Below, piece after piece: positions 25,768 to 62,342 of a DNA stretch of 64,000 bases. Below the pieces are notes generated by a model. The model was not told the DNA's origin and did no database searches. It saw nothing but the letters and a program-made list of their open reading frames with translations. The position numbers and the translations under genes were made by a program. Origin of the DNA: Tubulanus polymorphus (taxonomy: Eukaryota; Animalia; Nemertea). Each line of letters begins with the position of its first letter. Within the stretch, counting starts at the first letter, position 1. The stretch lies in contig NC_134028.1 in NCBI RefSeq assembly GCF_964204645.1, positions 21,138,345 to 21,202,344 of the forward strand, given 5' to 3'.

Positions 25768-25838
25768 TAAGATGTATAAACTGTTCATCGAGCCTTCGAG
25801 AGAAAAAGTCAACTTAATTCAATGATATTCGTTTACAG

Positions 25839-26661: not shown

Positions 26662-27002
26662 CTACGAACATTACGATATCCAAATACATTTTTATTGTTT
26701 CTTGGCATTTTCTGTAGATGGCGGATGAGTGTAAAGCGCGGTAAATACGTAATATATAGTACCATTTTCCTTGAATACAAAATTAAGATTACTGGGTTGT
26801 TCTATTGAATGTTTATATGCGTGTATAATAATAAATAAGAATAGTTTTTTATGTATGTATGGAAATTACTACATTGAATGCGAAATTGACGGCTTGAGTG
26901 TGAATAAGTGACAGCAAAAGCCGGTTCAACTCTCCAAAGGTGCTTATGTAGTGCGTTTTTACTATATTGAGATTGAAGCAGTTTCGATGGAGTTCAGAAT
27001 GA

Positions 27003-27252
27003 TGAGGGAGAGGGAGAGGGAGAGGGAGAGGGAGAGGGAGAGGGAGAGGGAGAGGGAGAGGGAGAGGGAGAGGGGAGGGGAGGGGAGGGGAGGGGAGGGG
27101 AGGGGAGGGGAGGGGAGGGGAGGGGAAGGGATGGGGAGGAGGAGGGGAGGGGGAGGGGAGAGGGAGAGGGAGGGGAGGGGAGGGGAGGAGAGGAGGGGAG
27201 AGGGACAGGGAGAGGGACAGGGAGAGGGACAGGCACAGGCACAGGCACAGGG
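27003..27252. repeat. Polypurine microsatellite (GGGAGA)n / (GGGGA)n / (GGCACA)n
   Basis: Read directly; homology between duplication units 1 and 2 breaks at its left edge. Confidence 0.95.
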
Positions 27253-29026: not shown

Positions 29027-32941
<3,915 letters not shown>

Positions 32942-34237: not shown

Positions 34238-35406
34238 ATGTATGACATGACAGCTAAACGCAGTAAGGTATGTTGTTTCTACATAGAAAAGGTGCAATAG
34301 CACAGTTGGGTTTCATATCATGGGCTTTAAACTTACTCGTAAAGCCTGGCGGCAGAAAAAGGGTAGGTGGATACTTGTCGTGAAAACCAGGCTTTAACTT
34401 GGAGCGGTCATCCATTTATTACGTAAGCACAATAGGGGAGGGGATGGTGAATTGAATTACATCACATCATACATAGGGGGCAGGGGTCAAATACCTTTAT
34501 GACATCAGATCTGGTCCAAAAACGATTTGCTTACAACCTTATTTGAGCAATTATCTGTTCAGATAATTGATCGTAGATTTAACCAATGCACCAACTGCGA
34601 GTACCCAACGCGGCAGAGTAAAGCGATTTAATACGAGTTTCTCGATAAAAACGCCTCATTGACCTTGATGATTCTCAAAACATTCGGTGGTTGACGCCGA
34701 TTGGATGCTGTAATGGCGGTGATGCATTCAAGTTCGTGAACTTACGAAGTTTGATAAAGTATGCAATTTGAAGTTTGTTAAAGTATGCAATCTTGTATGG
34801 TTTAGATTATAGGATAATTAGAATCAGTAGAGGGGTGAAAATATGGATGTAGTACGTGCACACAAGGGGGTTCAATCTCGCGCGTACAGGGCAAGGGGGT
34901 AAGGGTCTCCATTTTTAGAATTTTTTGCATCCGTATAAAATCGATGACCCCTATATACTTAACATCTATATATTTCAGTTACCACGAAAGTATGACTTGT
35001 TGTTCATGTTTTCAACGGTCGCCAGTATATTTTAAATGTGCCTAAACCACAGAGAAATCGACTTATCTACTTCATTCACTGTACAATCCTATAGTTTACA
35101 AGCACGTACTTAGGGGGGGGCAATTACAAACTAGACTTTTAAACGGTCTGTCCACGGAGCATCTCGCCATGTTCGATTAACAGGTTCCATGTTCTTCTTC
35201 AGATGATTGTAATAGTTTCAGTCCTTCATGTTTTGATAACGACCTCAGCGAGTGGTTCGGCTTATACCCGTGCAATTTTAGACGCATCAACTACGTGTAA
35301 AGAGTGTCAAGCAATCTGCAGCCAATCGTGCCAAGGGATGGGACATGAATATGAATGCACCTTTCTTTGCATGGGATTATATTGTCACAGATGTACTTCT
35401 GATTGA
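34238..35406 (+). CDS. Secreted 8-Cys peptide, subfamily B, copy B2
   Basis: Leader exon 34238-34267 (MYDMTAKRSK|gtatgt) plus exon 35203-35406 MIVIVSVLHVLITTSASGSAYTRAILDASTTCKECQAICSQSCQGMGHEYECTFLCMGLYCHRCTSD*; AATAAA at 35414-35419. Confidence 0.82.
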
Positions 35407-35641
35407 TTGGATGAATAAAATATTTCATCGAGCCTTCGAGAGAAAAAGTCAACTTAATTCAATGAGGACTGCAATCAACTGATCAACCAATCAACCAATC
35501 AACCAATCAACTGAGCAGCGTTTAATTTATTTCGTGATTTTACGTAAACCGTTATAACTGTAGCTAAAATACTTGAATACTCGTCCGTCAGTCAGCAGCG
35601 TCGGCGGCGGCGGCAGCAGCGGCAGCAACAACAACAGATAA

Positions 35642-35664
35642 CCTAACCACTAGACCATATGGGA
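35642..35664 (-). pseudogene. 5' fragment (23 nt) of tRNA-Glu
   Basis: cctaaccactagaccatatggga is identical to the first 23 nt of the tRNA-Glu on the minus strand. Confidence 0.7.
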
Positions 35665-35875
35665 CTAAAACGTCCGTTAACCAAATACGTACGTATATCC
35701 ATGTATAGGGTTCACACGCATTTCTTTATTGCCTGGCTTCAAGTTTTAAAGTTTTCATACAATCTTCCTGATACTTGTTGTTGTATCTATGGGCCAAGCC
35801 CGACATTTTCATATAATTAGATCTAGTACATTTAGTTCAACAACAACAAAAACAAAGATCAAACAAAAAGCAACG

Positions 35876-35947
35876 TTCCCACACCGAGAATCGAACCCGG
35901 GCCACGCGGGTGAGACACACGTATCCTAACCACTAGACCATATGGGA
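35876..35947 (-). pseudogene. Degenerate tRNA-Glu(CTC), duplicate of 26590-26661
   Basis: Four substitutions: the anticodon arm CGCGGC becomes CGTGTG (T-C mismatch and G32), plus one T-stem change. Confidence 0.75.
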
Positions 35948-36747
35948 CTACGACTTACACATAATCCAAATACGTTTTGATTGTTTTTGTTTTTTTTTAG
36001 CATTTTCGATAGATGATTGACGGCTTGAGTGATGAATAAGTGACAGCAAACATATAAACATTTTACACATAACCAAAGGTGCTTTTGTAGTGCATTTTTA
36101 CTATATTGAGTTGAAGCAGTTTCAATGGAGTTCAGAATGATGAATGTTAGTATATAGCGGACACGAAACGAGTAATTACCGCGGGGTAATCACTCTGTAA
36201 ATTTATTGAACTCGTTCATACTCTGCATCCATTGCGTCGTCTATTGTTTCATTCACATCATAGTACACTTACCTTCACCTAAACCACCTGTTTCAGACAT
36301 CACAAACCGGTGTTAACCCGAGCAGCGGCAGCAGCGGCAGCAGCGGCAGCAGCGGCAGCAGCGGACGTAGCGGTGAAATCATCTCATCCATTCGAGTAAA
36401 CACACATCTCTCTAACCCCTTCGTTCGGTTAACAGTTTTAACTGCTGTTACGTATGGTGGTACTCGAATAGAGCAGTTTACGATGTTTAAAGATTCAATA
36501 AACACTTGATCAGATATCTCTGGTTTACAGATAACCAGAGTTTATCGTCTTCATACAGAAATCCATCATCCAATCGGCTGCTATTGACGTTGATTGAGTT
36601 TGTGATCATTACCGGCCGTATTTACATCCGCCAGACTCTTCAATCTCATTAAAAATACGCCAGACCAATAGGGAACTGCCGACGCTACTGTGGCAATCGA
36701 GGATTCCGCATACGGCAAGCAGAGGATCCGCCAGGTGTCTCAAGAAC

Positions 36748-36974
36748 GTAAGGCAAAAAAAAATTGATACCTTGTTTCTCCGCTCTGCTGAGCTTAAATG
36801 TTGACCCGGCCGGCCGCCTATCTACCCTATACATTACTTTTTTAAAAATCGCGATCAATTTCACCATAACAGACCCGGCCGCTATGGAAATGAACTGTTT
36901 ATGAATTTTATCATATTTTACAAAAATGACCCGGCCGCTGCGGAGAAACAAGGTATCATTTTTGTTTAGCCTAA
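36748..36974. mobile_element. MITE with inverted termini
   Basis: aggcaaaaaaaaattgataccttgtttctccg ... cggagaaacaaggtatcattttttgtttagcct. Confidence 0.65.
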
Positions 36975-37602
36975 TTACTCTGCTTTTACCTACTGTTTTT
37001 GTAAATAATCGTAAATACTGTTTTTTTCCTCCATATACCATGGGAATGGTGGAGTGTAATAAATATTCGTATTTGTTTTCGTATTCGTATTCAGTCTGCT
37101 ATGTGTACTTGGAGTAATGGTTACTCCAAGTAATGATTACTATATAAACTTTATTGTCAAAGTGATTACTCCAAGGTGTATATAACATATATTCTGTGGA
37201 CAGTCGTTGTGTTCCTTTTTCTCTGACAAATTTTATTGCCTATCTTATATTTTTTGATATGAGTTATAATTGTAAATACTGCTTGATGTCCCTCTGTATA
37301 CCTATTGTTGTTGATGAGTGTAGATAAATTACATTTCAAAATTTCAAATTTCGATGACTGCCGTTTCAATTCCATCTTCGTTTCAGTCATAATCGAATTC
37401 AATGAAAACTATTATCAAGCACTTAGTAGAAGTAAATGTTTGATGGGTCCTGTGATAATGTAAGGATTTGGCGGCCTAAATACAGTTCAACCGAGGATGT
37501 TACGGAGTATTGATATCGCTTTTGTACTTATATAAGTTTTAATCAATAAATGATAAAGTGAAAAACAAAACGGTGTTCCCGAAAGTGAAAAACAAAATAG
37601 AG

Positions 37603-37674
37603 TTCCCACACCGGGAATCGAACCCGGGCCACGCGGGTGAGAGCCGCGTATCCTAACCACTAGACCATATGGGA
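37603..37674 (-). tRNA. trnE-CTC: tRNA-Glu(CTC)
   Basis: Identical 72-nt sequence to 26590-26661; downstream T-runs. Confidence 0.95.
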
Positions 37675-38072
37675 CTGCTAACAAAGTTCCGAGGATTAGG
37701 GTTAGGATTTACACTCCAACCATTTCATAAATTTGTCTTAACAAAAATATAACAAAGTTAACAACAATAGATACACTATTTACAATACACGAGCTTAGAG
37801 GGATCTATGTATACATGTCTGAGCCTATTTAATGAATTTTGCAAATGGATTGTAGGATTTTTTAGAATATCGAAATTGCCAAAAGGGTTCAAATTCACGG
37901 ATTTCATTCAGTAGAGTGCAATTAAAAATAGAATGTAATTCATCACATTGCCAGCGGAACATAATCATTTCTAACTTAAAATCTAGCAGGGATAGTTATT
38001 TTTGCGGTAGCCCAGTTTTATCGGGACCGACATGATATCTAGGTATATCAAATGAACCGTTTTGTCCGGACC

Positions 38073-38578
38073 CTACTGTCTGTCACACCTACTCTCCGTG
38101 CGACGTTTTGGTCCGTAATTTCGTTAATAATCGGTTTATCTACCTTTATTACGCATCAATTTGTTCAGTGAGGAATTTGCATTCAGAAATAAACAACAAT
38201 TTTCACTTAAGTTGTTTTTGTTTTAATTTATGAGCGATAGTTTACTCAGCATACGCTCGCGTAATGCTGAAAAATCCGCTCCGCGGACGCTCGGAAACGT
38301 TACAGTGACGTCATCACCTGCTCATTAGCATATCAAAATACAGTAGGTGGAGCCACGTGACGGGCCATAAAAGCCGTTTTTCAGCATTACGCGAGCGTAT
38401 GCTAGGTAAACTATCGCTGATAGAAGAAAACACAAACAAATTTCTGCCAGTTCATGATTTATTTCTGAATGCAAATTCCTTACTGAACAAATTGATGCAT
38501 AATATTTACAGATCAACCGATTATTAACGAAATTACGGACCAAAACGTCACACGAAGAGCATGTGTGACAGACAGTAG
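38073..38578. mobile_element. Foldback MITE with arms over 200 bp
   Basis: ctactgtctgtcacac...gacgttttggtccgtaatttcgttaataatcggtt mirrored by aaccgattattaacgaaattacggaccaaaacgtc...tgtgacagacagtag. Confidence 0.85.
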
Positions 38579-40402
38579 TTTCATCCTTACACAAGTTTGG
38601 ACCTTGATCTTCTCATTTACAGGGCAACAAGAGTTTCCCTGTTAGGAAGTAAAAGTTGTTAACGTGGAAAGAACCGAGTTGATACGATTCACCTGGCGGT
38701 GCTAAGTACCGTAAAAATCAACTGATAAATCTTTGTTTATCTAAACCTTATGTTTGTGAAACCACGTCTATATCTGCTGGCTAATCCGTGTCCTATTGAG
38801 AATACAGGGACCTCACACCGGCAAACAACATCTTTACCCCGTTCCGTTAAAAACCTAGCGAATACAGAGTTTCTATGTCAAGAGAGAGATGATAAGACGG
38901 AAGATACGCCCGGTGAGGATAAGCAGCTAGCTGAATTTCAAAGGCTGTCGGGCTTTTTTGTAAAAGTTGTAAAAATAATTTATTCCCTTTTCTCAAGAGC
39001 CAGCGAGCTGGAGTATATAATTACGCGTAGTTCTCTTCATCGTTTCGGTTTCGAGCATTAAACGCATTTTACTGTGAATTTATGATCCAAACCAAGCGTG
39101 AAAATTTAAAAAAACAGAACGCTTCTAATTGGCGTTTAACATTCCTGTAATAGTTGTTCGTGTAAACGTTTGTTTGTTTTAGTGTTTTTATGTTTCTTGG
39201 TAAGACGCGCATCGGTTTAGGGTTTGTGCAGTTAACAGAAGAATCTTCGACATAGAAATCATTGCAGTATTGGATGAAATGGTTGGAGCCAGTTTTATAG
39301 ACTGGTTTTAACTTAAACCCGAGGTAGAGTGAAGTGCAGTGAAATCACACAAGAACATTTTTAGAATGAATAAAGAATTAACGCCATATCCATATATTAT
39401 TTATATTTTTACATGTTTAAAGATACAATTGGTATACTATTATGTATATATATAGTGTACATCATATCTTTTGCATATTCAACACTTGATGAAAAGGTAA
39501 TTTATCTTTAGCTGCATCATCAGCATCAAAGTTTCTATATCAAGTCACTTCATCGGTTCCCTCTGGCAAGAATAAACTAACACAAATAATTGTCATCGGT
39601 GTAGGTGTTCGTTAGTTATTAAGTTCTCACCTCGGGCCTGATGCAACTTTCAGACATAATATACTTTTAAGTCGTTCAACACTGAATTTTAATTAGGGAA
39701 TTCAATACGCAAACTGCCCGAGGGGGTCAAACTCCGGGTTGAATCTGGATCTAGTCATTCAGTGTCGGTTTAATGTATTTGGTTTAACGGTATGTGTCGT
39801 ATTTATTCAGTGATAGATCATTGATCAAAAGTATAAACATTTCTATGTTTATCGATGCGATGTCACTACGAGCATCTAGTCACGTTCAGACCTCATTCCC
39901 TTCCGGAAAAATATTGATGATAAATACATATACGTATCTCCAAGTACACACACACGCAACATACAGGGAAAAAGTCTCGAAATGATTAAATGTCAAATGC
40001 TATTCGTGACGTATTGAGTGCGATTCAGCAACATTCAGGCGAATATTCCGAATCGCGAAGAGCTGTAATAGTTTCGTGACGCGCGTTTGATCCAAGCTGT
40101 ATTCCCTGGTGCCAAGACCACGTGCCAGCAGTTATCCCATCAGATGGCGTGCACAACAGTGGAACAAGACTTCCATCATCCGTTCCAACTTAGTAAACCA
40201 AATCGTCTCTCGGATTGACCCGCCACGTACTTCCGTTTGGCGCCGGATCTTCACCGGTGCTCAGTAAATGATGACGTAGGTGTTGGGCGTTCAATTAACG
40301 ATATTCCAATTATCTTCTCAGACTAATGAGATATATAAACATATACAACAGTTTCGCAAGTATTTCAATACGCGCGATGTTCTTGCTCGTTTGATCTAAA
40401 CT

Positions 40403-43400
40403 TCACGAATATTTATCCGTTATTTTTCGTATCCAATTCGCGAAATTCGGAACTATCGTGTATATACCGAATTTACCTTTTTCGCCGCATCCTTCTCCGA
40501 AACTGGTCACGCCGTAAACGTGCCATCGATCTTTGCCGTTTCGATGTATCCTGCACAGTAAAGGTCCACCGCTATCGCCTGCGCACGTGTCTATTCCGCC
40601 GAGTTTGTAACCGGCGCAAAGTTGGTTTTTAGTAATATCGAAATCGAAAGCTTTCTCGCATTCTGCGCGACTCGTCAGCGGCACTTTAACCTCGCGTAGG
40701 ACATCCGTACCGTACAAATGTGTTTCCTTCATTTTACCCCAACCTAACGAATAACACATTGTATTAGGCGGTAATATATCGTCGGATTCCGGAACGCAAG
40801 CGAAGTTGACGCCCTCGTTCGCTCTGACCGGAGATTTCAGTTTGACCAGCGCGATGTCGCTGTCTATTGTATCCATGTTGAAATCTGGGTGTACGAAATC
40901 TTTACTGCGTTTGAAATCGATTTCGGTTCCTTCGTGTAAACCGAAATCGTGTTCCCCGATACGAACGATCACCTTCCTCCGTCTGCCCTTCCGGCGCAGA
41001 CAGTGAGCCGCTGTAAGGACCCACTGTGGGGCTATCAGTGTACCACCGCAATACTGCTCCTTCCAATGGTTCAATATTGCGACCTAAAAACAGAAATAAA
41101 AAAGAAACCGATCAGATATCTTTCTTTTTATTTGAACTTCGTAGTCCATTGTGTACATATGGCGTCATATTGTCCGTCAAGCAGCTCACTGAAAGCTTAA
41201 AATTAAGGTTAAGTTAGAATTGTTGCCCTCATTAGAGACATGGTCTAACCACAAGAGCATTAAAACCAACACGATTCGAATGCATCTAAGCCCGCTTGGC
41301 CAGTTGGTGAAGTCACAGTCGGCCATCTCGGATGACATCGTGACCTATTTTGGTCATGAATTGTGACATGGAATATGATAGCTATGTCTGGAAAAACTAT
41401 TAAATTCATGACCAAAATGTATAATTTCAGAATCATAGATGGCCGCCAGTCAGCCATATTGGATGACATATTACTTAATTCGGTCACGTGATGGACCATT
41501 CCATTTCATATACTCTTATTGAAAAATGAATGCTCTACGTGGAATACTATAGCAGATGATAGCCAAAATGTGCATTTTCAGAAACCAAGATAGCCGCCAA
41601 TCAGCCATCTTGGTTTCGATTACCACAAATATCGAGCTCGTTCGAGATATTTTGGTCATACCAGGGAAGTACACTGGTCATACACTATATATTCGAATTT
41701 GAAGACGATTGGAAAAAAATTGTGGTCTGTATAGTGTTCACAAGAAACCTGATGCGCGGACGCATGCAGTCCATACCAGCACTTAGACCCAGCCGTACAG
41801 CATAAGCTCGAATAGCCTTCACTCAAGAGCTAAAAATTTGAGTATGAATTCTTCAGGAAAAATGTCGATGTCGATTGATAGTTAGATACCAAAACGTCGT
41901 ATGTTACTAAATTTTGTTTTTAAACTTTTAAATTCGTATATAGTTGGTTTTGTATCTTAATTCACCGCACCCGAGTCAGGCTGAATGTAGGATACACTGA
42001 AAACATTGAATCGATGCAAAAATACGTAGGAAATATCGCTTTCCTTCCGGTAGCATTAAAACAATATAAAACAGAAATACCGTACGATATCTTTACGAGC
42101 CTGTAGCTGCGAACCGCAAAAATTGAGGGAATGTGCGGGAATACAGCATCTATATCCAGTCTCGGCTGGTGCGTCTTTAATCTCTTGTAATCAATCCTAA
42201 ATCAAAACTTGAAAATAATTCTCTCTTAGAGTTCGACTACTCACCTGCCAGGGCCAACTACCGCGTCTAGTCTCGTGACCCCCGACGATCCTCAAACTCG
42301 GAAACGATTTCCGAATTCCGCATTCAACATTGGCGAGCACATCTCGTACCGGTGAAGTGTTATGGGTGTCGTCCACTCCTGGCTCGCCACCGCGGTCTTC
42401 ATTTACTTCTTAAAATCAAAACAGAATGGACATACATTAATTAGGATCTGGATTCAATCGTTCATAAAATAATATAGCGCACTCTATTCGTTTGTAACGA
42501 ACTCGAAATGAGAGAAATCCTACTCGACTTACCCCTGTCATTTGTGAGAACTAGTTCGGTTGCTGTTCCTTTCTTTTTATTGGCGCATGCGCTGTCGCTC
42601 GCTCTGCACTTCCGCACTTGTTGGAGTATAGTATTCTTACAGAGTAGCTGCACCGTACATTTACGGATACGTTTTTTCGTACAGGCCCTGGTGCACGGCG
42701 ACCAATCGGACCAGCTGCTATAGACGAGCTTATACAGCATCGTCCCGAGCATCCTCTGGTCATCTGCTCGACTGTGAGGCTGGCCTCGCTTTTTCTTCGT
42801 TTTCGACCAACAGCCCGAGTTGTACCGGTAACAATGCCTCGTCTCTCTCAACGTTAGATTTCGACACGTTCGATGGTTTACGCAAACTCGACTGCGATAT
42901 TGGCGACATTTTCGACTGCACGGCGACCAATCGGTCCACTCCCCGAACGATTCAGATTGGAACACCGACAGCACGTGTTTTTCGATTGGACCGCTATGGG
43001 GGTCGTATTTCACATCCTAAATACATGAATACATGGATTATTTTCGATTCACGAACAAATAGGGTGTTATAGAAGTAATGCACGTGACGTCACTGTTATA
43101 CTGGACTGGACGGTTATTCACTGTAACGTCCAGAATGACGCGTGTGAACACGTCCGCATTATTCCTCCATTCCGAGCCATTCCAGGACCACACGAAGTAA
43201 ATCCCACAATGATTCAGCCATAGATGAAAAGTTCTCGAATGGACGTGTGTATATTTAAGCAAAGTTTTGGCTAAAGACATCATCAGGCGTACTGATTACA
43301 GAAAGAATTTACTTGATATTCATACAATAAAAATCAAACGGGACCGAGTGAGACTCGTTTTTTCATCTCTCACGGATATTGCGTCTCGACTTATTTCAGG

Positions 43401-46400
43401 ACCAGTGCATAAGTTAAGATGTTTTTTTCAAATATTTCTCGTTGCGGCTCGATTTAGCAGTGGCCTTGCTGCGGGTTGAGCTATACACACGGCTATTGTC
43501 GTGTTTTAAAAAAATATTGTTCTTTATAACTGATGAAATCGGCTCCGATAAAGACGTATTGTGAATATATATGTATATGTGTAATAATTGAACGATGGCC
43601 AAATCAGATTTGCAAGTCAATCCTTGTTAATTTCATCCGCATTATTTTCCTGCTGCGTTTGACACGTAGTTTACGATTTGAGACTTTTTATCGAATGTGT
43701 GTGTGTGTGTATTCTGATCTTATCGAATCGTTGCATTAACGCTAGACTAAAACACATTATAGAGATTAGTGAGACCCCCAACTAATAATCCATTTATCGT
43801 GGCAACGATTAAGAGGTTAAGCCTCGTCAAATCCCAAATCATCATCACCGATAGAACCAGCTTTTAATGATATCAAAATAGGCAAAGGGGGTGAATAAGT
43901 GGCAGCCATCTTGCAGAAAAGTCTTTCTATAAGTTTATTTTCTTCTAAGGCAAGCAGTTACCGGACCTATCCTATCCTTATTTTCTATTCCTATGTTTCT
44001 TCAATTGAATTAGTTGAGTCCATGATGAAAAAATTCTTTCCATGGACAGTCACTTTGTTTATGGAAGCCAACATTCCTTAATTATGAATACAGATTGGTT
44101 TCCCTCATGATATACTCATCGAAAGGCCAGTTTTACGTTCAAACTCCTCCGTGATAGCTAATCGACCACTCACTCGTGTAGTAGAATACACGGAAACGTT
44201 GAATCGTTACAGACAAGATGGTTACAAGTTGATTTACTTATTGATTAGAGCGAAGAAAAGTGATAAACGCCAGAACAACTTGAGTTCCGTGTAGAACGTG
44301 AATGAGTCTCACCGATTCGGTCGTGAAAACATGCCGGCAAATTAGCCAGTACAAGCGGTACCAGCTCGGGGTACACTGCTTCCACTAAATACCACCTCAG
44401 GGTACCGTGGTAACAAACTGTATCCACTAAATACCACCTCAGGGTACCGTGGTAACAAACTGTATCCACTAAATACCACCTCAGTGTACCGTGGTATACA
44501 CTGCATCCACTAAATACCACCTCAGGGTACCGTGGTATAGACTGTATCCACTAAATACCACCTCAGAGTACCGTGGTATGCACTGTATCCACTAAATACC
44601 AACTCAGGGTACCGTGGTATACACTGCATCCACTAAATACCACCTCAGAGTCCGTGGTATACACTGTATCCACTAAATACCAACTCAGGGTACCGTGGTA
44701 TACACTGCATCCACTAAATACCACCTCAGAGTCCGTGGTATACACTGTATCCACTAAATACCACCTCAGAGTACCGTGGTATGCACTGTATGCACTAAAT
44801 ACCAACTCAGGGTACCGTGGTATACACTGCATCCACTAAATACCACCTCAGAGTCCGTGGTATACACTGTATCCACTAAATACCAACTCAGGGTACCGTG
44901 GTATACACTGCATCCACTAAATACCACCTCAGAGTCCGTGGTATACACTGTATCCACTAAATACCACCTCAGGGTACCGTGGTATACACTGCATCCACTA
45001 AATACCACCTCAGAGTCCGTGGTATACACTGTATCCACTAAATACCACCTCAGGGTACCACTGCATCCACTATATACCACTTCAGGGTACGGTGGTTTAC
45101 ACTGTATCCACTAAATACCACCTCGGGGTACCGTGGTATACACTGTATCAACTATATACCAAACTTCCTGGTGGTTTAATTGTTTACATATATAAATCGC
45201 ATATGTTATTGGTAGATCGAAGGCGAATGTTTAGGATGCCTCAGAAGCCTAATTACTGAAAAACTGTAGCGACGTTGTATTTACACTCAAAGCAAAACTA
45301 TAGATACGTTGAAGATATGCGAGCTGGTAACTTCTTTCGCGTTACTGATTTTCCCTAATTTTACCAATAATTGAAAAATCGATCGTCACTGGCTAATAGT
45401 CAGGTAGAAAAAGGCAAATTTTCGAGATGCTAATTTATCAAAGTCTTTTGGTTAAAGAGAAGCTATTCAAATGACCGGATTCGAATACTGAAAAAATGAT
45501 ATACATTACACTTTACCCTCTAGAAAATATGACTGCCTCAATAAATCCGTTATGAAATTTCATTGCATTTCCTGAATAGTTTACATCAATAGATACCAGA
45601 TGACAATACGGCTATAAAATAAATTCGTTTTACATAAATCAAATGCCAATATGCAATCGAAAACAGTTTTGATTTTGTTGTTATCGATTATCAAAAGACT
45701 CGATAGTAACGGAGTTTATGAAGCCATCAGAGGAGCTAAACCATAAAATAGCTCTTAAGCTTACAACTAAATGATTATTACAAGTCTTTTTAAAGTTCTT
45801 AAAGGAAACCCTTACATTCAAAGTGTTGTTCCGTTGCGATATACAAAGAAGATCAAAATGCCAGGAGAAAAAATACTTCAAAGAAACTTCAATTTTTATT
45901 TTCAATCGATTTCTATCAGTGGCGTCCGCGAACGAGCTATAGGATTGAAAGACGGTTATTGTTTGAATGCGGTAATTTTTGACATTGTAGCAAAAGAGAG
46001 GTCAAGAGAAAGATTACAGAGCGGAGGATCGGATCACCTTAATCTTTTCTTCCAAGAATAAAATTTGTTTGTTTTCAGTCGTCGGATACTTAGGCCTGCT
46101 CTACTGCCGTGTATGGTATTATGTGTATGGTAGCTGATTCGGGCCGGCACTAGAACGCCCGATATGGCACGAATCAGCTATAACGTATAATATTCAATTA
46201 TTTTTGCAATATTTGAATAAAACTCGTCCACATTTGTTCATGACCTTTAGAAATTCGAAAATTGTATACCGTTCGTTTTAACATACGTCATATTCGATAA
46301 ACACAGGGACAAAATAATCATGCACGAAGAATCTATTTCCAATCAGCAATCATCAGGAATTGATATCATAAGCAGCCTTGCTCTTAAACACCGATTAATA

Positions 46401-50768: not shown

Positions 50769-51125
50769 GTCGTTGGCTATGCCGCTGCGCAGTTAGCATC
50801 GTCAGTACGGTAACATTTCATATACTCATTATAGGCCCATTTTACTTCCGAGGACCCACCTCGACAACAACCCTAGATAGATCGGCTCGTCACAGGTATA
50901 GCTGGATCGGTTATTTTGGTGAAACACTCTTGAGACCGTACCTTAACAATAGATATACAAACAATAACATCGCAAGCAAAACATGATATTCTTGGACTCG
51001 ATTTCCCTTTTCATATTGAAAACCAAGAGTGAAATACGGATATATTGTTGTTGTTTTTCCCATAATGCCTTTATTTATCTTTGAAAGAAATCGTATTGTG
51101 TATTCGAACTCCTGGTATGTATCCA

Positions 51126-51706
51126 GGAGGGAACGGAAAAAATGGCCAAGGAAAAATGGCCAAGGAAAAAATGGCCACAGAAAAAAAGGCCAAGTAAGAT
51201 TAAATAGAAAACTAACTATCATTTCATTAACTAACAGGAAATCAAATGCATTGATGTTTTGACGTGGGACTCTCTGAGATTATTGGACCGATTCCTGAAT
51301 TAGTTTTGGTAATTTACGATGATCATATCTAACTTTGATGTTATCAGACACTGCACCAGTTTACTATATGAATTACCACACAATTTCAATGCATTTACCT
51401 TTGATAGTTTAAGACAGCCAGTGCCTTAATGGCTTACTTTGATGTTTTGAAATATTAATTTAGCTAATTTACTAAGTTTAAGTTTACCACTATCAAGTTT
51501 ATCCATTGATCTGAAATGAAATGTAATTCATCAAATTTCTGAACGCATTATACCGATTGTAATTGTTTTAAGCCCCATAGAAATAAATGATGCCATTAAA
51601 TTGAAAGCTTAATGTTTTATCAACATTGTCAGTGTTTCTCATAAATTTTCCTTGGCATTTTTTCCGTGGCCATTTTTTCCTTGGCCATTTTTTCCTGCAA
51701 TCCTCC
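51126..51706. mobile_element. Mutator-like MITE with subrepeated TIRs (GGAAAAAATGGCCAA)n
   Basis: ggaggg.acggaaaaaatggccaagg... and inverse ...ccttggccattttttcctgcaatcctcc. Confidence 0.7.
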
Positions 51707-51748
51707 CATACAGGTATTAGAACGTCGAAGGCTCGATTAACGCTTAAC

Positions 51749-51955
51749 TCAATCGACAAGACAGTGGCCACAAACTGAGCCCATGCAAGCAAAATAGGTA
51801 CAGTCATAACTATCCATCGATTCATCCATTGATTGACACGATGTTCTACAGATTGCAAGACAGTTTTTACACGTCGGTGCTGATGTGCCCATAGCACGAT
51901 TCGAGCTGCCCATCCAGATGGTTATCAATACATGCAAAACAACAACTACTAGAAT
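51749..51955 (-). CDS. Secreted 8-Cys peptide exon, subfamily C, copy C3 (alternative last exon joined to leader 53572-53601)
   Basis: Acceptor ttccatactcttcttcag| (homologous to the B acceptor), phase 0: ILVVVVLHVLITIWMGSSNRAMGTSAPTCKNCLAICRTSCQSMDESMDSYDCTYFACMGSVCGHCLVD*. No Met before the hydrophobic core, so it needs the leader exon. Confidence 0.78.
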   Translation of the reverse strand: MLVVVVLHVLITIWMGSSNRAMGTSAPTCKNCLAICRTSCQSMDESMDSYDCTYFACMGSVCGHCLVD

Positions 51956-52050
51956 CTGAAGAAGAGTATGGAAAACAAACTGTAAACGAATATAATTGAA
52001 TTAAGTTGACTTTTTCTCTCGAAGGCTCGATGGACGTTTTATTCACCGAA

Positions 52051-53601
52051 TCAATCATAAGTACATCTGTGACAAAAGAATTTCATGCAGAGAAACGTGC
52101 AATCATATTCACGTCTCTTCCCTTGACACGCTTGGCTGCAGGTTGCATGACACTCTTTACACGTAGCTGACACGTTATAAATACCACGAGTAGCCGAACT
52201 ACCCGCCGAGGCCGTTATCAAAACATGCAGAACTAAAACTATAACAATCATCTGAAGAAGAACATGGAACCTGTTAATCGAACATGGCGAGGTGCTCCGC
52301 GGACAGACCGTTTGAAAATTACAATAACCACATGCAAACGTGGTTAACGGATAATAAGATAAAAACCCCACTATTTACAAATTGAAAGAATTTTAAAATC
52401 GACAGTACACGACGTTTCGATCTCACCCTAGATATCATCGTCAGGTGTGAGATATAGACTTAAAACAAGGGTATATATAATGAGGAGAACAGGTTGATTG
52501 AGTGATATAATACCCTTGTTTTTTAGTCTATATCTCACACCTGAAGATGATCTCTAGGGTGAGATCGAAACGTCGTGTAAATTATATTTCAGATTTTTTG
52601 ATTGAATAAATTCTCGATTTTAAAATTCTTTTAATTTGTACATAGTGGGTTTTCATTTATTGCCCGCTCCCCCAAGTATGTGCTTGTAAACTTTATTATG
52701 AATGAACAGTGAATGAAGTAGATAAGTCAATTTCTTTGTGGTTTAGAATATCATTTAGAATATACTGGCGGCCTATAAAAACCTGAACAAGAAGTCACAC
52801 TTTCATAGTAACTTAAATATATAGATGAATATGAATAGTTTGATCAATGTTAAGTATATAGGCGGTCATCGATTCATTACGTAAATTTCCAACGATGGAG
52901 ACCCTCTACCTTGTTGACCTGTACGCACGAGATTGAACCCCCTTGTGCGTATACGTACTACATCCGTATTTTCGCACCCTCCCCCTCTACTGTTCTCATT
53001 ATCCTAATCCAAACCATATAAGATTGCATACTTTATCAAACTTCATCAGTTCACGAACTTTTTTGAATGCATCATCGCCATTACAACGTCCAATCGGAGT
53101 TAACCACCCTATGTTTGGAGAATCACCAAGGTCGATGAGGCGTTTTTATAAAGCAACTCGTATCAAATCGCTTTACTCTGCCGTGGCACAAATCATAATC
53201 GCCTTCAATAAATGACCCTACCTCAAAGCATTTCCATGAGCTATTTGGCCGCATTGGGTACTCGCAGTGGGGCTTTGGTTGAATAAGGTTGTAAGGAAAT
53301 CGTTTTTGGACCAAAATTTCTGATGTCATTAGGGCACTAAGCCCCTGCCCCCTCTGTATGATGTGATGTAATTTACTTTAACCACCCCCCCTATTGTGCT
53401 TACGTAATAAATGGATGACCCCATATATATTTCTTCCAAGTTTAAGCCTGGTTTTCACGACAAGTTTCCATCTACCTTTTTTACTGCCGCCAGGCTTTAC
53501 CAGTAAGTTTAAAGCCCATGCCATGAAACCCAACCGTGCTATTGCACCTCATCTATATAGAAACAACATACCTTACTGCTTTTAGCTGTCATGTCATACA
53601 T
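52051..53601 (-). CDS. Secreted 8-Cys peptide, subfamily B, copy B3 (inverted third copy)
   Basis: Leader exon 53572-53601 (MYDMTAKSSK|gtatgt) plus exon 52051-52251 MIVIVLVLHVLITASAGSSATRGIYNVSATCKECHATCSQACQGKRREYDCTFLCMKFFCHRCTYD*; AATAAA at 52038-52043 on minus strand. Confidence 0.82.
52407..52448 (-). ncRNA. Minimal type I hammerhead ribozyme-like motif
   Basis: ACAC-CTGACGA-t-GATATC-tagggt-GAGATC-GAAAC-GTC-GTGT; one stem II mismatch. Confidence 0.5.
52537..52578 (+). ncRNA. Minimal type I hammerhead ribozyme-like motif
   Basis: ACAC-CTGAAGA-t-GATCTC-tagggt-GAGATC-GAAAC-GTC-GTGT: core boxes, perfect 6-bp stem II, 4-bp stem I, loopless stem III as in Penelope-associated hammerheads. Confidence 0.6.
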
Positions 53602-53924
53602 TTGAAAGGGAAGAAAACACTTGGCGCCTGCTGGAAAGATGGTTTAGACGATTATACCGGATGATGTATAATAAATGATGTCGTGTCGTTTTAAGCCAGC
53701 TGTCCATATACGATATTCTGAATTATTTAGACAACTGAAGTTAATATTGAGTTAGCTTAACTCAGTTTTGTAATCGTAGATTCTCAGACTGAGGAAAAGT
53801 AAAGACGCTAATGAAAGCGTCACTCATAATCTCTCCCCGACTCACCAAAAACTGCTGCCACGTGTACAAAAAAACCCCAATAATAACCCCCACAGCCTCG
53901 AAGAAATCGCCATAGGGACGTGCG

Positions 53925-54050
53925 AACATACCGACATACCGACAAACCGACAAACCGACGAACCGACAAACCGACAAACCGACGAACCGACAAACCGACG
54001 AACCGACAAACCGACATACCGACATACCGACAAACCGACGAACCGACAAA
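53925..54050. repeat. 8-bp tandem repeat (ACCGACAA/GA/AT)n
   Basis: Read directly; marks the edge of the inverted third copy. Confidence 0.9.
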
Positions 54051-54059
54051 AAGACAAAT

Positions 54060-54487
54060 CCGTGCGTGGATCACCCTTATATAAAGTGGCTGGAAGCGAG
54101 GGGCTGCGTGTGTGCGTAGGTTACCCTTATATAGAGTGGCTGGGATCGAGGGGCCGCGTGTGTGAGTGGATCACCCTTATATAGAGTGGCTTGGATCGAG
54201 GGGTGGTGTGTGCGTGGATTACCCTTATATAGAGTGGCTGCTATCGAGGGGCTGCGTGTGTGCGTGGATCACCCTTATATTCACCCAGTCCTGAGAATGG
54301 CCGGTTCGCGGAGCTCCGTATACTGCCTATACTAAAGAGCTCGCGTGAATCAGGGGTCGCATTAGCGATATACTGACACTAAGGTTCTCAGTGAACCCTT
54401 ATATAGAGTGACCGGGATCGAGGGGCTGCGTGTGTGCGTGGATTACCCTTATATAAAGTGGCTGGCCGGATCGATGAGCTGCGTGCT
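54060..54487. repeat. ~50-bp minisatellite (GTGCGTGGATCACCCTTATATAGAGTGGCTGGGATCGAGGGGCTGCGT-like)
   Basis: About 6-7 degenerate units with one interruption. Confidence 0.85.
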
Positions 54488-54859
54488 TCCATCAGTTGAT
54501 TTTCACAATCAGGATTGTAGACATTGTCGACGAGTAGAATCGGCCGACATTTAGGATTGATAGATCTCTACTTTTACATGTTCTGGAGTTGAGCCGCACG
54601 TCCTATGGCGTAATGTCGTAAGATTCAATCAGTCCAATATTGGCGGATAAATTCCAAATACCAGTCCAATGTGATAAGTCTCTGCTGGAACTATTTAATG
54701 CTATAATGGACTTGAGCCTAAATAGTTAACACCGGACTCCGCAATCGCGGCCGAGTATCAACGGAACAGAATAATGGAACAAAGATTGAATCACCCGCGT
54801 GTTGAACAAAAGCGCGCGTAACATTTTAAATTATACAATTCGCCGCTTACATTCAGCGC

Positions 54860-54931
54860 TCCCATATGGTCTAGTGGTTAGGATACGCGGCTCTCACCCG
54901 CGTGGCCCGGGTTCGATTCCCGGTGTGGGAA
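54860..54931 (+). tRNA. trnE-CTC: tRNA-Glu(CTC)
   Basis: Identical 72-nt sequence; TTTTTT terminator about 5 nt downstream. Confidence 0.96.
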
Positions 54932-55615
54932 CATATTTTTCGCTCTTTTTAGTGTTATTTTTTCTTTATAAAATGTTAGTGATTTGCTAGTTACAGCCTA
55001 CATATTTGATCTACATGCCATAGTTCGCTTTAGCACCAACCCTTTTATTGATATGTTCATTATGACGATTAGCCGTTTTGGCCCAGGCATTTTGTTGCAT
55101 TCATGGCGATTTGTATGTACTTATACTTGTGAAAAACCGCTCCAGTTTTAAGCGTAAAATGACAAGAAAGAATTCTAATTACAGTGAATTTATTATTCAT
55201 TTTCACATATATACACGTTGGCTTCATGATAAAGTCACGGGTGATTGTGGGCTGATTGCGGGTCCATTGGGTAGTAATGCATTGACGTGGGCACAACTCG
55301 TCATAGACACACGTACACGTGTCTTGTTAGCTGCTAGGCGTAGACCAGGCCTGGGTTCGGGAGAACTGCCATCTGTCGTCAACACGATGCGAAGTCGGAT
55401 CCGGAGGCTAATTTTGAGAACTCGTCGCGTCCCAAAAGGACACCTTGATGTCCAACGGCAATATAAGCGCACGGGCTGTTGGACTGAAATGCAACATTTT
55501 ATTTTGTTTGTTGATGTAAAAGGCACCCACAGATTTGATGGACAAGTCGCCCCCTGGATCCACTCCCACTCTCTATATATATATTGTGTTGAAGTTCGGA
55601 GTGTAGGTGATAGGC

Positions 55616-58600
55616 TTAGAACCGATGAGTCGTTAACGTATGCCAATACGATATCTTGGTCATTGGTGAAGACACCATCGCTTTCTGCCAATGCATTAAT
55701 CCACTGTCAGCACCGCGTGGACCAATCACTATCTGCCCTAGGGGGCGACTCTTTCGCAGTTTACTCTTCGCGCATGCGGTGAATATAAGTTTCATGTTAT
55801 GACTGGTCGCGGGATTGACGTCGAATACAAATGATTCATTATATTCGGGATTCGTTTGTTTGCGTATTATTCTGGTTTTCCGAGTCTTCACAATTTCGTC
55901 CGAGAACATAAAACACACTCTCACAAAGACACCAACTAGAAAATAGCCATTTAAAATTGTTCACGACGGTGAATGTAAATGCACAAATCCCACCGACCTA
56001 TTAACTTTTGAAGTTGCTTTTTCCAAAAGAAAATATATAGAAAGCGACTTTCACTATCAAAATCATCTTTATATCTCTTTCTAAATGGTAATCTACTCCG
56101 AATTACCAAAAGTAGAATTTAGGACATATTTGAATCACCCGCTCGTTGATTAAAGTGTGCATAGCGTTTAATACACAGCATGCGCCCGAAATAATTGTAA
56201 TCCCATATGGTCTAGTGGTTAGGATACGCGGCTCTCACCCGCGTGGCCCGGGTTCGATTCCCGGTGTGGGAACAATTTTTTTCTTACGTTGCAATTTTTT
56301 AAATAAGCCTATTAAGCCTAATGTGTTACTAGCGAACTTTCCGCCGTTTTTACCTGTACTATCCTTTTCCCAAACGTTCGGAATATAAAGATCTTGACCT
56401 CGAAGAATCCCAACTGTTAACTTCTTAAATAATGGATCATATGCTAGTGATATATACAATTGTCCTTCATCCAAATCACTCTGAAAAACACAACGAAGAA
56501 AACATTTAAAACTGAAAGATTTGTGTTTTGCTCTTCTTTTTAGAAAATGCGTTTTGGTGGTTATGAATTTGAGCCGAGTAGTAGGCCGACTTTTCCATGC
56601 GGCCTTAAGCCTAGCGCACATCGACAAAGCGACTGGAGACAACTAGTTGCTAGTGAGCGAGTACCCCGCGCACATCGAAAATTTAGTAAAAACCAGTAAC
56701 TGCGTGGCTCATGCCGGTCGCTAAATCCATAGCGCACACATCGACAGCAACTGAGATGTGGTTAAGCAAATATTCTTGAGGGCATCACACGTCACGTGAC
56801 AAATAGCTTTGTTTTAGTCAGTTACAACCATGTGTTGTTGATTATGGAGCGCTCACATCGACGGATATGCGAGCAACTGAGTACAACTAGTTGCTCTAAA
56901 GTAGAACATGAGCAACTGGGTGGAACTGGAGATAGATATGGACGCTAACCAGTCGTAAGCTCGCTCACATCGACAAATTCGAGCAACTGATTGTATCCAG
57001 CCAGTTGCTCTCATGCGCCGAAAACTGCCTGGCAACTAGTTGTCTCCAATCGCAGTGTCGATGTGCGCTAGGCTTTAGGAAGCTTATATAGCCGCTAACA
57101 ACGCAGGCACCTAATGTAAGTACTATAAGAAGAGAAAGAAACAGAAGAAATAAGTTTGGTGTGAGAAGTAATTGGGCAAAAATGAAAACTTTTAGATGAC
57201 GCATAAGCAAATAAATAGTAACAGGGTTGGATGAACAAGGGATTGCACCGTCGGATGTCTGTATATTGTAATGATCAATAATTACACGAATCCTGTTGGG
57301 TTTTATTACCAGCGAAACACGAAAAATGCCTATAATCTATAGGGAAAGTACCGGTACGTTCGTAAAAAATCAAACGGCCCCTCAGACGCACACTTGGTAT
57401 TTGATCCAGCTTAAGAGATAATCGATTCACTTAGGATGACTATGTAATATTGTGATCTACGATGCTTAAGGAATAACAATAGGTATTAGTTTCACCTTAA
57501 TCATTATAGGAGAAATTAAAAGTTTTCCACATAACAGAATATTTTGAACTTATAACGAAATTCCCATTAGGAACTGACTGCGACTGTGACTTTGACCTGT
57601 TGACTCAATCATTTTGTGGGATCTATACGTATTAAATGGGAAAGCGTCATATGACACGGTTTAATTATAATTTTATCAACTCCGATAATGACAAATGAAA
57701 CTTTATGATTTCAGTTCAGCTATCGTCTGCAATAAAATTAAAAGGTTCAATTTGGTATCGGGTTATTTTAGAATGTTACAACCCGAGCAAATCACCTACA
57801 CCTCTCTCATATTGATGAAAAATATATATAAAATGTTTGTCCTTGTTTCAAATGTTTAAATGTTTTCTTTTCTCTATTTCTGGTCATTCCATCTGATATG
57901 ATGGCTGTTGGTCAAGAGTGTTGTTTCATTCCAATAAATTCCATCGGATAGAAAATGTTATTGCTGGTTTTTTCATCTGAACATAGGCTTTGCATTTCTG
58001 CTCCAATACGCGCGGTGCATTGGTACTCACCGGTAAAGACTCTTGTAAATCCATCCACATTTCATCTGCTATTGAGCTGTCGTCTGATATAGTTTTCAAC
58101 GGTAATAGCACGTGACCTTTGATGGAATCTCTTGAAAACCGATCGTATTCACAAACTGTAATCAATAACTTAGTTTCAGTTCTGTAATCCGCGGATAAGT
58201 TTGTAAACAGAAACTCCTCGTTGAAAACTGGGTCTGCGTTGCGATAGTTTTTACTGGTAAATTTCGTATCCTTGTTCGGTAGTATAGTTAACTTCAGGAA
58301 TGTCGTTTCCGATGACTTTTTGCGATATTTCGATCGCAAGTTCTCGGCCCTGTTTATTCTGACTAACAGCGATTTTCTCGCGTTTCGCGGCTCAACCGAG
58401 AAACACAATCTTCCGTGGACTTTTCGCGAACAAGCTGCGTTAACTGTCGCGGTTTCTTCGTCGTAACTGCTGTCGGAGAGATAAAGACCTTTATCCAATT
58501 CTTCTAAACTGATACTAAACGAATCGAAACTTCCCCTTCTCGGCTGATGTCGGGTCGACAGAGTCAATCTGTCGACTGACCGACACATCGTCGACATCCG

Positions 58601-58876
58601 CTGTAAATCCGTTAAACTTCGTCGCCTGTCGGCATTCATCTCATCACAACTCTCATAATCCAAAAAACTGTCTTGACTTCTTGTGACGAGCGGTTTTTGA
58701 AGTAACTGTATTACTGGTTCAGTTATGATAATAGTAGGTCTCCTACTCCCATCCGGGTCGCCAGGCTCGTACCCTGCATCGTCACTAGCAGCAGCAGCAG
58801 CAGCAGTATCCCCTTTAGACTGATTATCGTAACAAAATATACGACAGCAACATTTCCAAATCACTGAAACAATCAT
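55616..58876 (-). CDS. Synaptotagmin-like tandem C2-domain protein (SYT15/17-like; no evident TM helix, degenerate Ca2+ ligands)
   Basis: Exons 58031-58876 (MIVSVIWKCCCRIFC...HGRLCFSVE...DPVFNEEFLF...VCEYDRFSRD), 56354-56480 (GQLYISLAYDPLFKKLTVGILRGQDL), 55616-55935 (KTRKTRIIRKQTNPEYNESFVFDV...LGQIVIG...HW...YWHTL). Phases 0 and 1 consistent; the true start could be further upstream. Confidence 0.85.
56201..56272 (+). tRNA. trnE-CTC: tRNA-Glu(CTC), antisense inside the last intron of the synaptotagmin-like gene
   Basis: Identical 72-nt sequence; T-run terminator. Confidence 0.96.
56608..57074. mobile_element. PIF/Harbinger (Tourist-like) MITE
   Basis: TTA|AGCCTAGCGCACATCGAC ... GTCGATGTGCGCTAGGCT|TTA: perfect 18-bp TIR and 3-bp TTA TSD. 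Confidence 0.88.
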
Positions 58877-59219
58877 GTTTCGATGCGGTATCTTCACATA
58901 CGCGGGGAAATGAACATTTCAGTTGCATATGCGCGCAGCGACATTCTTAATCGTTTCTATTAAGTGCCTCCGTCCTGAATTCCAGGTTACGACGTATAAA
59001 GGCGCTTTTACAGCTTGTGCTCGATTGCTAATTATTCCATTATTCGGTATATTCAGCGAGAGCCTGTTTATCACTAGGACATCGTACATGATAACTGGGT
59101 TTGTTGACAATACAATCATAATCACATTTGTATACGGCAGGTCACCCTCTCCCCTTTCTCCTCCCCTCTCCCTCCCCTATATCTCTCCCGCTCCATCTCT
59201 CATATTTCTCTCCCCTCCC

Positions 59220-59819: not shown

Positions 59820-62342
59820 ATGAATAAAATTTTTCTAGTTCTAGCTGTTGGACTTGTCTTTGCTTTCAGCATCGAATACAGTAAGTTGAAGATAAATGTT
59901 TGTTATATTTTTGGCAGGGATTTCGGGCGTGTAATTGCGAGGAACGAGTCAGAAAACGGTTGTAAGTTGTAAGACATTTGTGTCGGAGCATGTAGGCCGC
60001 CATCTTGGAGGAGGTCCCCGAACATGGCGACCAGTATATATATATATATATTATATCATTTCATTAAATAAGTATTTCAGTTTGCCATCCTATTTTGCTA
60101 ATAGCCCCCTCCTTCGAATGATTCAATTCTAATTTCACAGCTAAAATCAAAACTCGATTTCCAACTAAGTCAGAACAATGGAATATGTTATACTTAATAA
60201 CAACTTGAAATCAATCATTCAATGCGATTTCATGTTACGAGGGTTAAGCTTATTTTCGTAATAGTTCACCTGATGAATTATTGTTTTATAGTATCACATA
60301 AAACAAGCAATTTATATTCAACCTCTTCGAGGTTTCTTCAAACTGTCCTCTTTCTTGCTCCGTTTTAGACGTAAGAAAGTATATGGACATTGTAAATTTG
60401 GGGTAATTAATTACTTCACGATATTTATGATATGCTGGTGATTTCAGATATCCTGTGGTATATGCGTATCATTTTGTAGTTGTGGACACACGCACTTCTA
60501 GTTTTCCGGCTTTCAAATCCTTATTTGTTCAAGGAGGCGTGATATTCTTCGAGTTATCGACGATCGATTCAGTGCATGATCTTGGAACAGCCTGGATTAC
60601 ATATATCGATAGAAAAGTTAACATTAAAAATAGATTTATATTTCCTTTTGAAAAAAGGTGATCTTTGAAGGATTACCTATCATGAAAAAATGTGTTTCTC
60701 TAAAATTGAAGTTAAGTATGCAGCATGGTCGTTTTTAGCAGGGGCAGATTTCCACCCGGAAACTTTGAAAAGGTGCCATTTTTCCAAATACTGGTACATA
60801 TTATTATGTCCTATAGAATTGGCCTTTTTCTTGCCCTCTAAATTCCAAATGCTCGGTACGACCGTACGCAGTCCTAATTTAAATTCGTTTCTGGTTGACA
60901 AACGTAGAATTTGCTACTTCACATTCGTATGCCACAGTTTCGGTAAAGGTAAACACTCAAAACCGTCAATTGCGAATATTTTAACATGATTTCGAAAACA
61001 TTTCGATATAAGCATTTACATATACCAGTCCTATTGACAGCTGTCGTGTCTCATCGTGAAGCTAAGGAATTCATCTCTGAATGATGAAATATCAATCTCT
61101 GTATGTCCTTTATTTACGTATATCGATGCAAGACCATCTAATGTAACATGATCAGATACGCCCAGACTCCTCAGACTAGATCAATATTTCCTGATATAGA
61201 AAGAAATTCTGCACACATAGATATCTTCCCACTCCGAATGCTTGTTTATTCCACCAGAGAAGTACATGAATATCACCAATACAACTGCGAATATATTCAT
61301 AGTTTGTTAATTACAATATCAGTGCATACAAGTACCGAGCAGGTAATTGGTAGACATTATTCCCATATGCTACGAATAGTATTTGCAATGCTAATAATAG
61401 GCTGAGTAAAGGAATATCAGACAATCTGTTCTCACAAATTGTACACCGAAATACGTTAAAGTGATTCGTAAGCGCTTTCAATAACATATTAGAATCGTTT
61501 TCTTAAACTTAGAAAACAATCTTATGTAATAACGAAATACGCTGTAACCCAAGCAATTTCAGTATCGCTCGCTAAAATTATTTTCTTCAATTTATCTCAT
61601 GCTTGTCACGTAATATTTATGTATTTTCAGCCTCTTCAATCAAATGTTACCTGTGTAACACCTATGCTCAACCTTTGAAGTGTAATGATTGGTTTGACAA
61701 TAGTACTCAGCCGGTTAGAGACTGTCCCGATAATACTACGCTGGGACCGGCCATCGGATGTCGAAAGATAGTACAAGAAGGTGAGTAGCAGATAAACGAC
61801 GATGAAACATTCTGAGTTCATATTGTGTTGTTAAGCAGATATTACGAAATCTCACGCTAGAAAATAAAATCTGAAATGTTTCCTTGAAATAGTAGTAGGT
61901 ATATCCTAATAGTCCTAGGAATACAGTAATCAGAAGGTAATTTTAAGATAAAGTCGAAACCAACTCGGGGAAACATTTCGTATCCGTTTTTCCTTCTTAT
62001 TGAGGAATCTGAAGTTATATTTTCGCCTCATTCGAACTCGCTATTTCGTGTATCAAACTAAGACGTATTTCTTTTTGGAATTTTGCAGCTGAATTCGAAG
62101 GTAAATGGAACGTTCGTATAGTTCGTCAATGCGCCTATCACGGGGAGCCAGGAGCGGATGAGGGTCGTGTATGCAAGGAACGCGTCGGCACCTACCGAGT
62201 ACGCGTCCGTTATTGTCACTGCAACAACAAAGATGGCTGCAATACAGCCACCGGTGCGAAGATTAGCTATGCAGCTTTGTTACCCGTCCTATTGATCACG
62301 GCAGCGTTTGGATACAAGAGTTTACACTGGACTTTATCATAG
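59820..62342 (+). CDS. crok: Ly6/uPAR three-finger GPI-anchored protein, crooked/quiver family
   Basis: Exons 59820-59880 (MNKIFLVLAVGLVFAFSIEY signal), 61631-61780 (IKCYLCN...KCNDWFDNST...DC...CRKIVQE), 62089-62342 (GKWNVRIVRQCAYHGEPGADEGRVCKERVGTYRVRVRYCHCNNKDGCN + hydrophobic GPI signal). 10 Cys; closely resembles Drosophila Crooked motifs as I recall them (FDNST, CRKI.Q, CAY.GEPG, C.CN.KDGCN). Confidence 0.88.

Follow-up and report, generated by a model that had tools for sequence, protein, structure and literature searches.

The unit at positions 51749-53601 (minus strand) of the window, by which is meant the whole stretch of 64,000 nucleotides analysed, is probably a single gene with one leader exon and two alternative last exons, B and C, each giving a different predicted secreted peptide with eight cysteines. 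This organisation had been put forward in the original prediction and is still the best supported reading; it has gained signs of protein-level selection on exon C, but it is still drawn from DNA, and the second locus cited in its favour is no clean replicate. The mechanism (alternative last exons, tandem cassettes) is already known; what is unusual here is the sharing of no more than 10 residues, together with the extreme economy of the cassette and a peptide family for which the searches run here found no relatives. Small secreted Cys-rich peptides usually diversify through duplication of whole genes, and toxin-like genes are described as having few documented cases of alternative splicing (PMC12758981). 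Should both junctions exist, hardly a smaller switch between whole peptides would be possible; with a silent C, the locus would be an ordinary peptide cluster of the birth-and-death kind. Gene predictors would miss C or call it a pseudogene, so that such peptides could be undercounted.

Organisation of the unit

The unit occurs three times in the window, as L1 (23865-26057), L2 (34238-35406) and L3 (51749-53601), and exons are numbered accordingly. The features of L3 are as follows.

53572-53601, minus strand: leader exon, coding part (10 residues, n-region of the signal), with three near-identical copies in the window
52252-53571, minus strand: intron 1, leader to exon B, 1320 nt
52051-52251, minus strand: exon B3, with signal core, short linker, 8-Cys mature peptide and stop
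52038-52043, minus strand: AATAAA, candidate proximal poly(A) signal of B3, 8 nt past the B3 stop
51956-52050, minus strand: 95-nt spacer between B3 and C3
52019-52031, minus strand: 13-nt element about 20 nt past the B3 stop, with identical copies after C3 (51737-51725), B1 and B2
51749-51955, minus strand: exon C3, with homologous signal core, 8-Cys mature peptide and stop, a phase-0 acceptor and no start codon
51125-51704, no strand assigned: fold-back repeat about 45 nt past the C3 stop, of high depth in the DNA runs
51070-51075, minus strand: first AATAAA past C3, candidate distal poly(A) signal, at +674 from the C3 stop and beyond the fold-back repeat

The original coordinates of leader, B and C were borne out (53601-53572, 52251-52051 and 51955-51749), as were the 95-nt gap between the B stop and C, both acceptors with their common phase 0, and the homology of the signal cores (VVVVLHVLIT and IVLVLHVLIT). 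The leader has 30 nt of coding sequence and a consensus donor (AAG/GTATGT) in phase 0. Behind this one donor stand two homologous terminal exons in tandem, both with an intact acceptor in the phase of the donor and each with an open product. Their homology is far beyond chance (BLASTP E 8e-9; direct-repeat spacing 290-294 nt) and reaches about 35 nt ahead of the acceptor and about 27 nt past the stop. Exon B3 opens with its own ATG, and ATT stands at the matching place in C3. Acceptors ending TCTTCTTCAG were found only four times in the window, before B1, B2, B3 and C3. By a simple home-made pyrimidine score, computed for 6394 AGs, the C3 acceptor is among the best 0.19% and that of B3 among the best 1.7%. 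Another in-frame AG, not noted in the original prediction, is found 24 nt before the C3 acceptor (51981-51980; exon start 51979), and C1 is preceded by it as well. When joined by coordinates, the leader gives 76 residues with B and 78 with C, each product having eight Cys and a strong hydrophobic stretch; through the upstream AG (51979) the C product has 86 residues. Counted from the first Cys, the net charge is +2 for B and -3 for C.

The spacer holds, in this order, the B 3' end region, branch-point-like motifs (~52001 and ~51983), the in-frame AG, and the pyrimidine tract and AG of C. That C has neither a start nor a leader of its own stood up to scrutiny: the spacer contains no ATG, and no leader-like sequences were found in the window beyond the three unit leaders. 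Intron 1 contains three chance ATG..GT mini-exons, all before B and not kept in the other units. Because the leader is the only start codon found for C, alternative last exons are the best reading; with no other leader-like sequence, no in-frame fusion and a strong C3 acceptor, splicing to the shared leader is the simplest route.

The AATAAA expected about 8 nt past the B stop was located at 52043-52038 and, for B2, at 35414-35419; by chance, about 2.7% of sites would have this signal within ~30 nt. Of the two poly(A) sites expected, B thus has a candidate signal at +8, and C has no AATAAA near its stop, the nearest one downstream being at +674. Identity of the 13-nt element after B1, B2, B3 and C3 hints that the C3 flank has been 3' UTR.

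In the proposed mechanism, the leader would be spliced to 52251 and the transcript cleaved just past the AATAAA (52043), giving B, probably by default. When the B poly(A) site is passed over, the leader would be spliced to 51955 (or 51979), with B and its poly(A) signal removed as intron, and the transcript would end further downstream, for instance at 51075. The U-rich stretch needed for 3' end processing of B would overlap the branch point and pyrimidine tract of C, so that B cleavage and recognition of the C acceptor would compete in the 95-nt spacer. The switch would exchange a cationic (+2) for an anionic (-3) peptide. Several points of layout count against the reading: C is intact in only one of the three units; there is no AATAAA near the C3 stop, with a fold-back repeat 45 nt behind; and the canonical AATAAA of B precedes C and would end most transcripts. 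The 3' end of C is the weak point of the shared-leader model.

Contigs of runs X1-X3 include the introns and cross the B and C acceptors without a break, as DNA would, and among the joints listed for these runs there was no GT..AG joint between exons. Run X4, guessed to be RNA, yielded 2 and 9 short pieces that left even the exons of the neighbouring WD40 gene uncovered, so it is uninformative. The tandem may have originated by duplication of the last exon or by fusion of two tandem paralogous genes with loss of the second promoter and leader; either would give the same anatomy.

Sister units and signs of selection on exon C

The introns of the three units differ by about 10-13%. The features of L1 and L2 are as follows.

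23865-23894, plus strand: leader of L1
25567-25767, plus strand: exon B1, with 7 Cys (sixth Cys lost) and TATAAA at +8 in place of AATAAA
25839-26057, plus strand: damaged exon C1, open from the upstream AG
34238-34267, plus strand: leader of L2
35203-35419, plus strand: exon B2 (8 Cys) with its AATAAA (35414-35419)

The same layout had been claimed for 23865-26057. This held only in part: C1 is without the B-type acceptor and the eighth Cys, and has a Glu in its signal core. A 12-nt deletion across the intron/exon border removes the B-type acceptor and creates an out-of-frame AG (17-residue product), while the upstream AG still opens a frame of 82 residues; the Glu replaces a Val, and 7 Cys are left. 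The loss of the sixth Cys from B1, together with the change from AATAAA to TATAAA, indicates that the whole L1 unit may be relaxing. In L2 there is no C exon; likeness to the other units stops about 57 nt past the B2 stop and is taken up again from the sequence that lies downstream of C1. C is therefore intact in one unit of three, being damaged in L1 and absent from L2. With B as outgroup, the damaging differences (the Glu, the lost Cys and the lost acceptor) were all assigned by eye to the C1 side.

L1 and L2 lie in a segmental duplication (~21400-28300 versus 28600-39900) that holds an A gene, the B unit and a tRNA gene. A further copy, partial and inverted, lies 15 kb away at 51700-54950 and holds the third B unit. 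Two more 8-Cys peptide exons, A1 (22590-22766, plus strand) and A2 (32765-32941, plus strand), lie upstream of L1 and L2, respectively, and show a remote likeness to B and C (tblastn E 0.011 and 0.040).

B3 and C3 are identical at 119 of 192 aligned nucleotides (38% divergence), with dS about 0.72 and dN about 0.49. First and second positions of Cys codons were kept in 16 of 16 cases, against 65 of 112 elsewhere (p=3.6e-4), in an alignment partly anchored by the cysteines themselves. When neutral change was simulated at 0.2-0.25 changes per site, the frame and all eight Cys survived in 0.9-0.35% of 20,000 runs. Together, these two results argue that C has been a protein-coding exon for most of its history; such deep constraint on the Cys codons would be no less compatible with a C that then formed a gene of its own.

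Since C sits behind B in both L1 and L3, the differences between C1 and C3 arose in that layout. Replacement sites changed at 8 of 157 positions, compared with 101 of 913 in the intron (about half the rate; one-sided p=0.012). Silent sites changed at 6 of 44 and match the intron rate (p=0.62), which argues against gene conversion. There are no internal indels in 201 nt, against 4.5 expected (P=0.011) from the intron rate of 19 events in 853 nt, a rate that may exceed what coding-like sequence suffers. Branch lengths were 0.022 for C3, 0.05 for C1 and 0.07-0.10 for the B copies. For the period after the split, comparison of replacement with silent sites within C gave p=0.085 and comparison of the whole C exon with the intron p=0.15, and neutral drift of 0.05 leaves C open with eight Cys in 28% of cases. 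The post-split constraint on C is thus modest. Taken as a whole, the sequence comparisons lend moderate support to a function for C where it now stands, on the L3 line at least. The mature region of B changes faster than the intron (27 of 139 versus 94 of 865; p=0.007), as would be expected of a diversifying secreted peptide.

No measurable extra conservation was found in the region of the C acceptor and spacer; windows of 66 nt taken from the intron are as well conserved in 56 of 848 cases, and conservation of the spacer was rejected as support.

Alternative explanations and known systems

C may instead be a stranded and now silent exon that is decaying behind the B poly(A) site. It would once have worked as an alternative exon, or have been the final exon of a neighbouring paralog whose promoter and leader were deleted. 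We judge this unlikely, though far from negligible. It would account for the loss of or damage to C in two of the three units, for the want of a proximal poly(A) signal and for the repeat inserted behind the stop, and pseudogenes occur in lophotrochozoan Cys-rich peptide families (PMC4558851). A silent exon fits poorly, however, with the deficit of replacement changes and the absence of indels since the L1/L3 split, with the short C3 branch and the strongest acceptor of the set, and with the clearly damaging differences all falling on the C1 side (B as outgroup, by eye). That C is expressed without this leader, from an unrecognised first exon or promoter of its own (in the intron, in B or far upstream) or with a trans-spliced leader, is improbable. 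The layout of a poly(A) signal, about 100 nt and a strong acceptor is operon-like. In nematode operons a poly(A) signal is likewise followed by about 100 nt and then a strong acceptor, and the flatworm spliced leader ends in AUG, so that such a leader would supply the missing start of C. C, which in an operon would be the downstream cistron, has no start codon of its own. Against such expression stand the lack in the window of another leader-like copy or a conserved ATG..GT mini-exon and, for trans-splicing, the place of the organism in a quick tree of the neighbouring protease, on the mollusc side among slow-evolving protostomes and away from arthropods. Trans-splicing and operons are reported absent from annelids (PMC7854359) and from molluscs (PMC3862624).

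A single mRNA carrying both B and C, with C either as a long 3' UTR of B or joined to part of B in a fused or two-domain product, is very improbable. The gap of merely 95 nt would suit it, and multi-module precursors exist in mussel MgCRP-I and in spider toxins, where the duplication lies inside one exon (in one frame for MgCRP-I; PMC4558851; spider multi-domain peptides, PMC13172734). B nevertheless closes with a stop, a fusion would make the signal core of C superfluous, and re-initiation would find no start codon. B and the spacer contain three donor-like sites, each in phase 1, against phase 0 for the C acceptors, and this mismatch rules out an in-frame fusion. An assembly artefact is hardly credible as the source of the B-C tandem, even though segmental duplicates and repeats abound in the region. 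The two exons are 38% different over their aligned bases, two diverged instances of the tandem exist, and contigs of the DNA runs lead from C into the spacer and from the spacer through B with no differences; these runs may be the source of the assembly and hence not independent.

For one gene with alternative last exons, the closest published parallels are the Drosophila genes PGRP-LC, CG42235 and pipe, in which tandem 3' cassettes are chosen one at a time (PMC6191721; PMC9013439). Like L3, they have a common 5' part and homologous 3' cassettes from tandem duplication, each with its acceptor and with a choice tied to 3' end formation, and PGRP-LC is an immune gene. Unlike L3, their cassettes are multi-exon, swap a domain of a larger protein and are selected by competing RNA pairings, whereas in L3 one exon of 200 nt encodes the complete mature peptide along with most of its signal peptide. 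Splicing has been demonstrated for the Drosophila cassettes and is our deduction for L3. As for docking/selector pairing, no inverted pair was found at either L3 acceptor among the 25 longest pairs listed per region. C and the intron form one inverted pair of 27 nt (74%), but its perfect core is short; the pair was put down to chance by a rough count and was not retained.

The calcitonin/CGRP gene (CALCA) yields two different secreted peptides and shares more 5' coding sequence between its products than L3. There, an alternative last exon and poly(A) choice alter the C-terminal coding region, splicing and polyadenylation compete, and the proximal site is described as weak, in contrast to the canonical proximal signal, 95-nt gap and 10 shared residues of L3 (PMC3647115). 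In the skin defence-peptide cluster of Silurana tropicalis (cpf-St4/cpf-St5), splicing to the neighbouring gene supplies the missing part of an incomplete tandem paralog (PMC3731216); there a gene without a terminal exon borrows that of the neighbour, and L3 is the mirror image, in that an exon without a leader would borrow the neighbour's leader. Duplicated exons with alternative splicing also diversify an immune or venom protein in insects (PpSerpin-1; PMC12758981), where part of a large protein is swapped and not, as in L3, a whole peptide. Reported splicing in conotoxin genes alters the propeptide, and cases of alternative splicing from scorpions and snakes are cited in the same paper (PMC3862624). 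In the literature searched, with most subscription papers outside its scope, no direct case was found of a gene for small peptides in which one leader serves alternative last exons that each encode a whole peptide.

The MgCRP-I family resembles that of L3 in its tandem paralogs, conserved signal, fast mature region, pseudogenes and Cys domain in the last exon, but has six Cys with an adjacent CC where the L3 family has eight non-adjacent Cys, which rules out membership (PMC4558851). We hold as possible, and only tentatively, a wider view in which this is an undescribed lophotrochozoan family of secreted 8-Cys helical hairpins whose 10-codon leader is joined to either of two whole-peptide exons, with the 95-nt spacer acting as a regulated cationic/anionic switch and the three units showing the cassette intact, decaying and lost.

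Peptide relatives and surrounding DNA

In both B and C, a hydrophobic signal core and a short linker are followed by the Cys pattern CxxCxxxCxxxC...C...C...CxxC. AlphaFold2 gave B a signal helix and a two-helix hairpin (mean pLDDT 64.6, with 78-83 over the Cys region) and mature C helices at similar places (pLDDT 66.3); both peptides are thus predicted to be helical hairpins, in models of modest confidence. We infer from the Cys spacing that the disulfides would be nested. A role in defence or signalling is a guess from the gene-family pattern.

Structure comparison with Foldseek gave no match with E below 0.001. Vanabin2 was found at E 3.5 (rmsd 1.2 over 35 columns), vicilin-buried peptides and luffin P1 were also weak (all E 3-10), and the best VIA-align Z was 3.7. 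These disulfide-stapled helical hairpins resemble the peptides in shape only, with no sequence likeness. The homologue search with B3 alone was blank; with an alignment of 7 sequences it gave 432 candidates (lengths 31-128 searched), none at E 10. HMMER with B3 over 1.84 billion representatives returned two long multi-stretch proteins. The sequence search of the PDB was blank, and no B exon matched a Pfam family up to E 1. In the Atlas, the best row for B3 was 0.81 (no relative) and there was none for C3. Eclosion hormone (PF04736) was considered and rejected, with no Pfam match and an Atlas row of 0.79 within the chance range. Metagenome contigs held 91 stretches with the pattern, none of them confirmed, and the DNA pattern was found in none. 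Relatives of the peptide family are absent from the searches run here, and the family is unplaced.

GC content of the window is about 38%. On the minus strand, 40400-43000 carries a thrombospondin-repeat and trypsin protease; its trypsin domain was checked by search, and the thrombospondin repeat was presumed by eye. The trypsin-type exon (40406-41074) has relatives in gastropods at 53-54% identity and in arthropods at 44-51%, with closer ones at 65%, and it groups on the gastropod side, apart from the arthropod clade, in a quick tree, which makes a lophotrochozoan, perhaps an annelid, the likely source of this animal DNA. By eye we take 14800-18700 (minus strand) to be WD40 exons of a TBL3-like gene, 55600-58900 (minus strand) to be C2-domain and synaptotagmin-like, and 62000-62340 (plus strand) to be a Ly6/uPAR-like exon. 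Five near-identical tRNA-Glu(CTC) genes are present (26590-26661, 35875-35947, 37602-37674, 54860-54932 and 56201-56273), three of them close to peptide units.

Three different fold-back (MITE-like) insertions (24300-24958, 52363-52653 and 51125-51704) are each private to one unit. The one in the L3 intron has its arms at 52363-52402 and 52614-52653 and is found only in L3; it is likely polymorphic, because a contig of run X2 has an identical B3 exon without the 52.3-52.7 kb insertion. The C3 3' flank and the L2 breakpoint share a likeness of 10 nt, which falls within an arm of the fold-back repeat and was discarded for that reason. The shared intron also has a 33-nt inverted pair (52852-52884 and 53400-53432; 85%), probably the ends of an older element. 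Upstream of L3 only, 8-nt and 50-nt tandem repeats with TATATAA motifs occupy 53926-54485, whose very high depth in the DNA runs marks a genome-wide repeat. Elsewhere in the window, 31293-31986 consists of about 116 copies of GTTACC (99% match) with TAT/TAATTA runs on its flanks, and 44372-45161 is a 41-nt minisatellite of about 20 copies.
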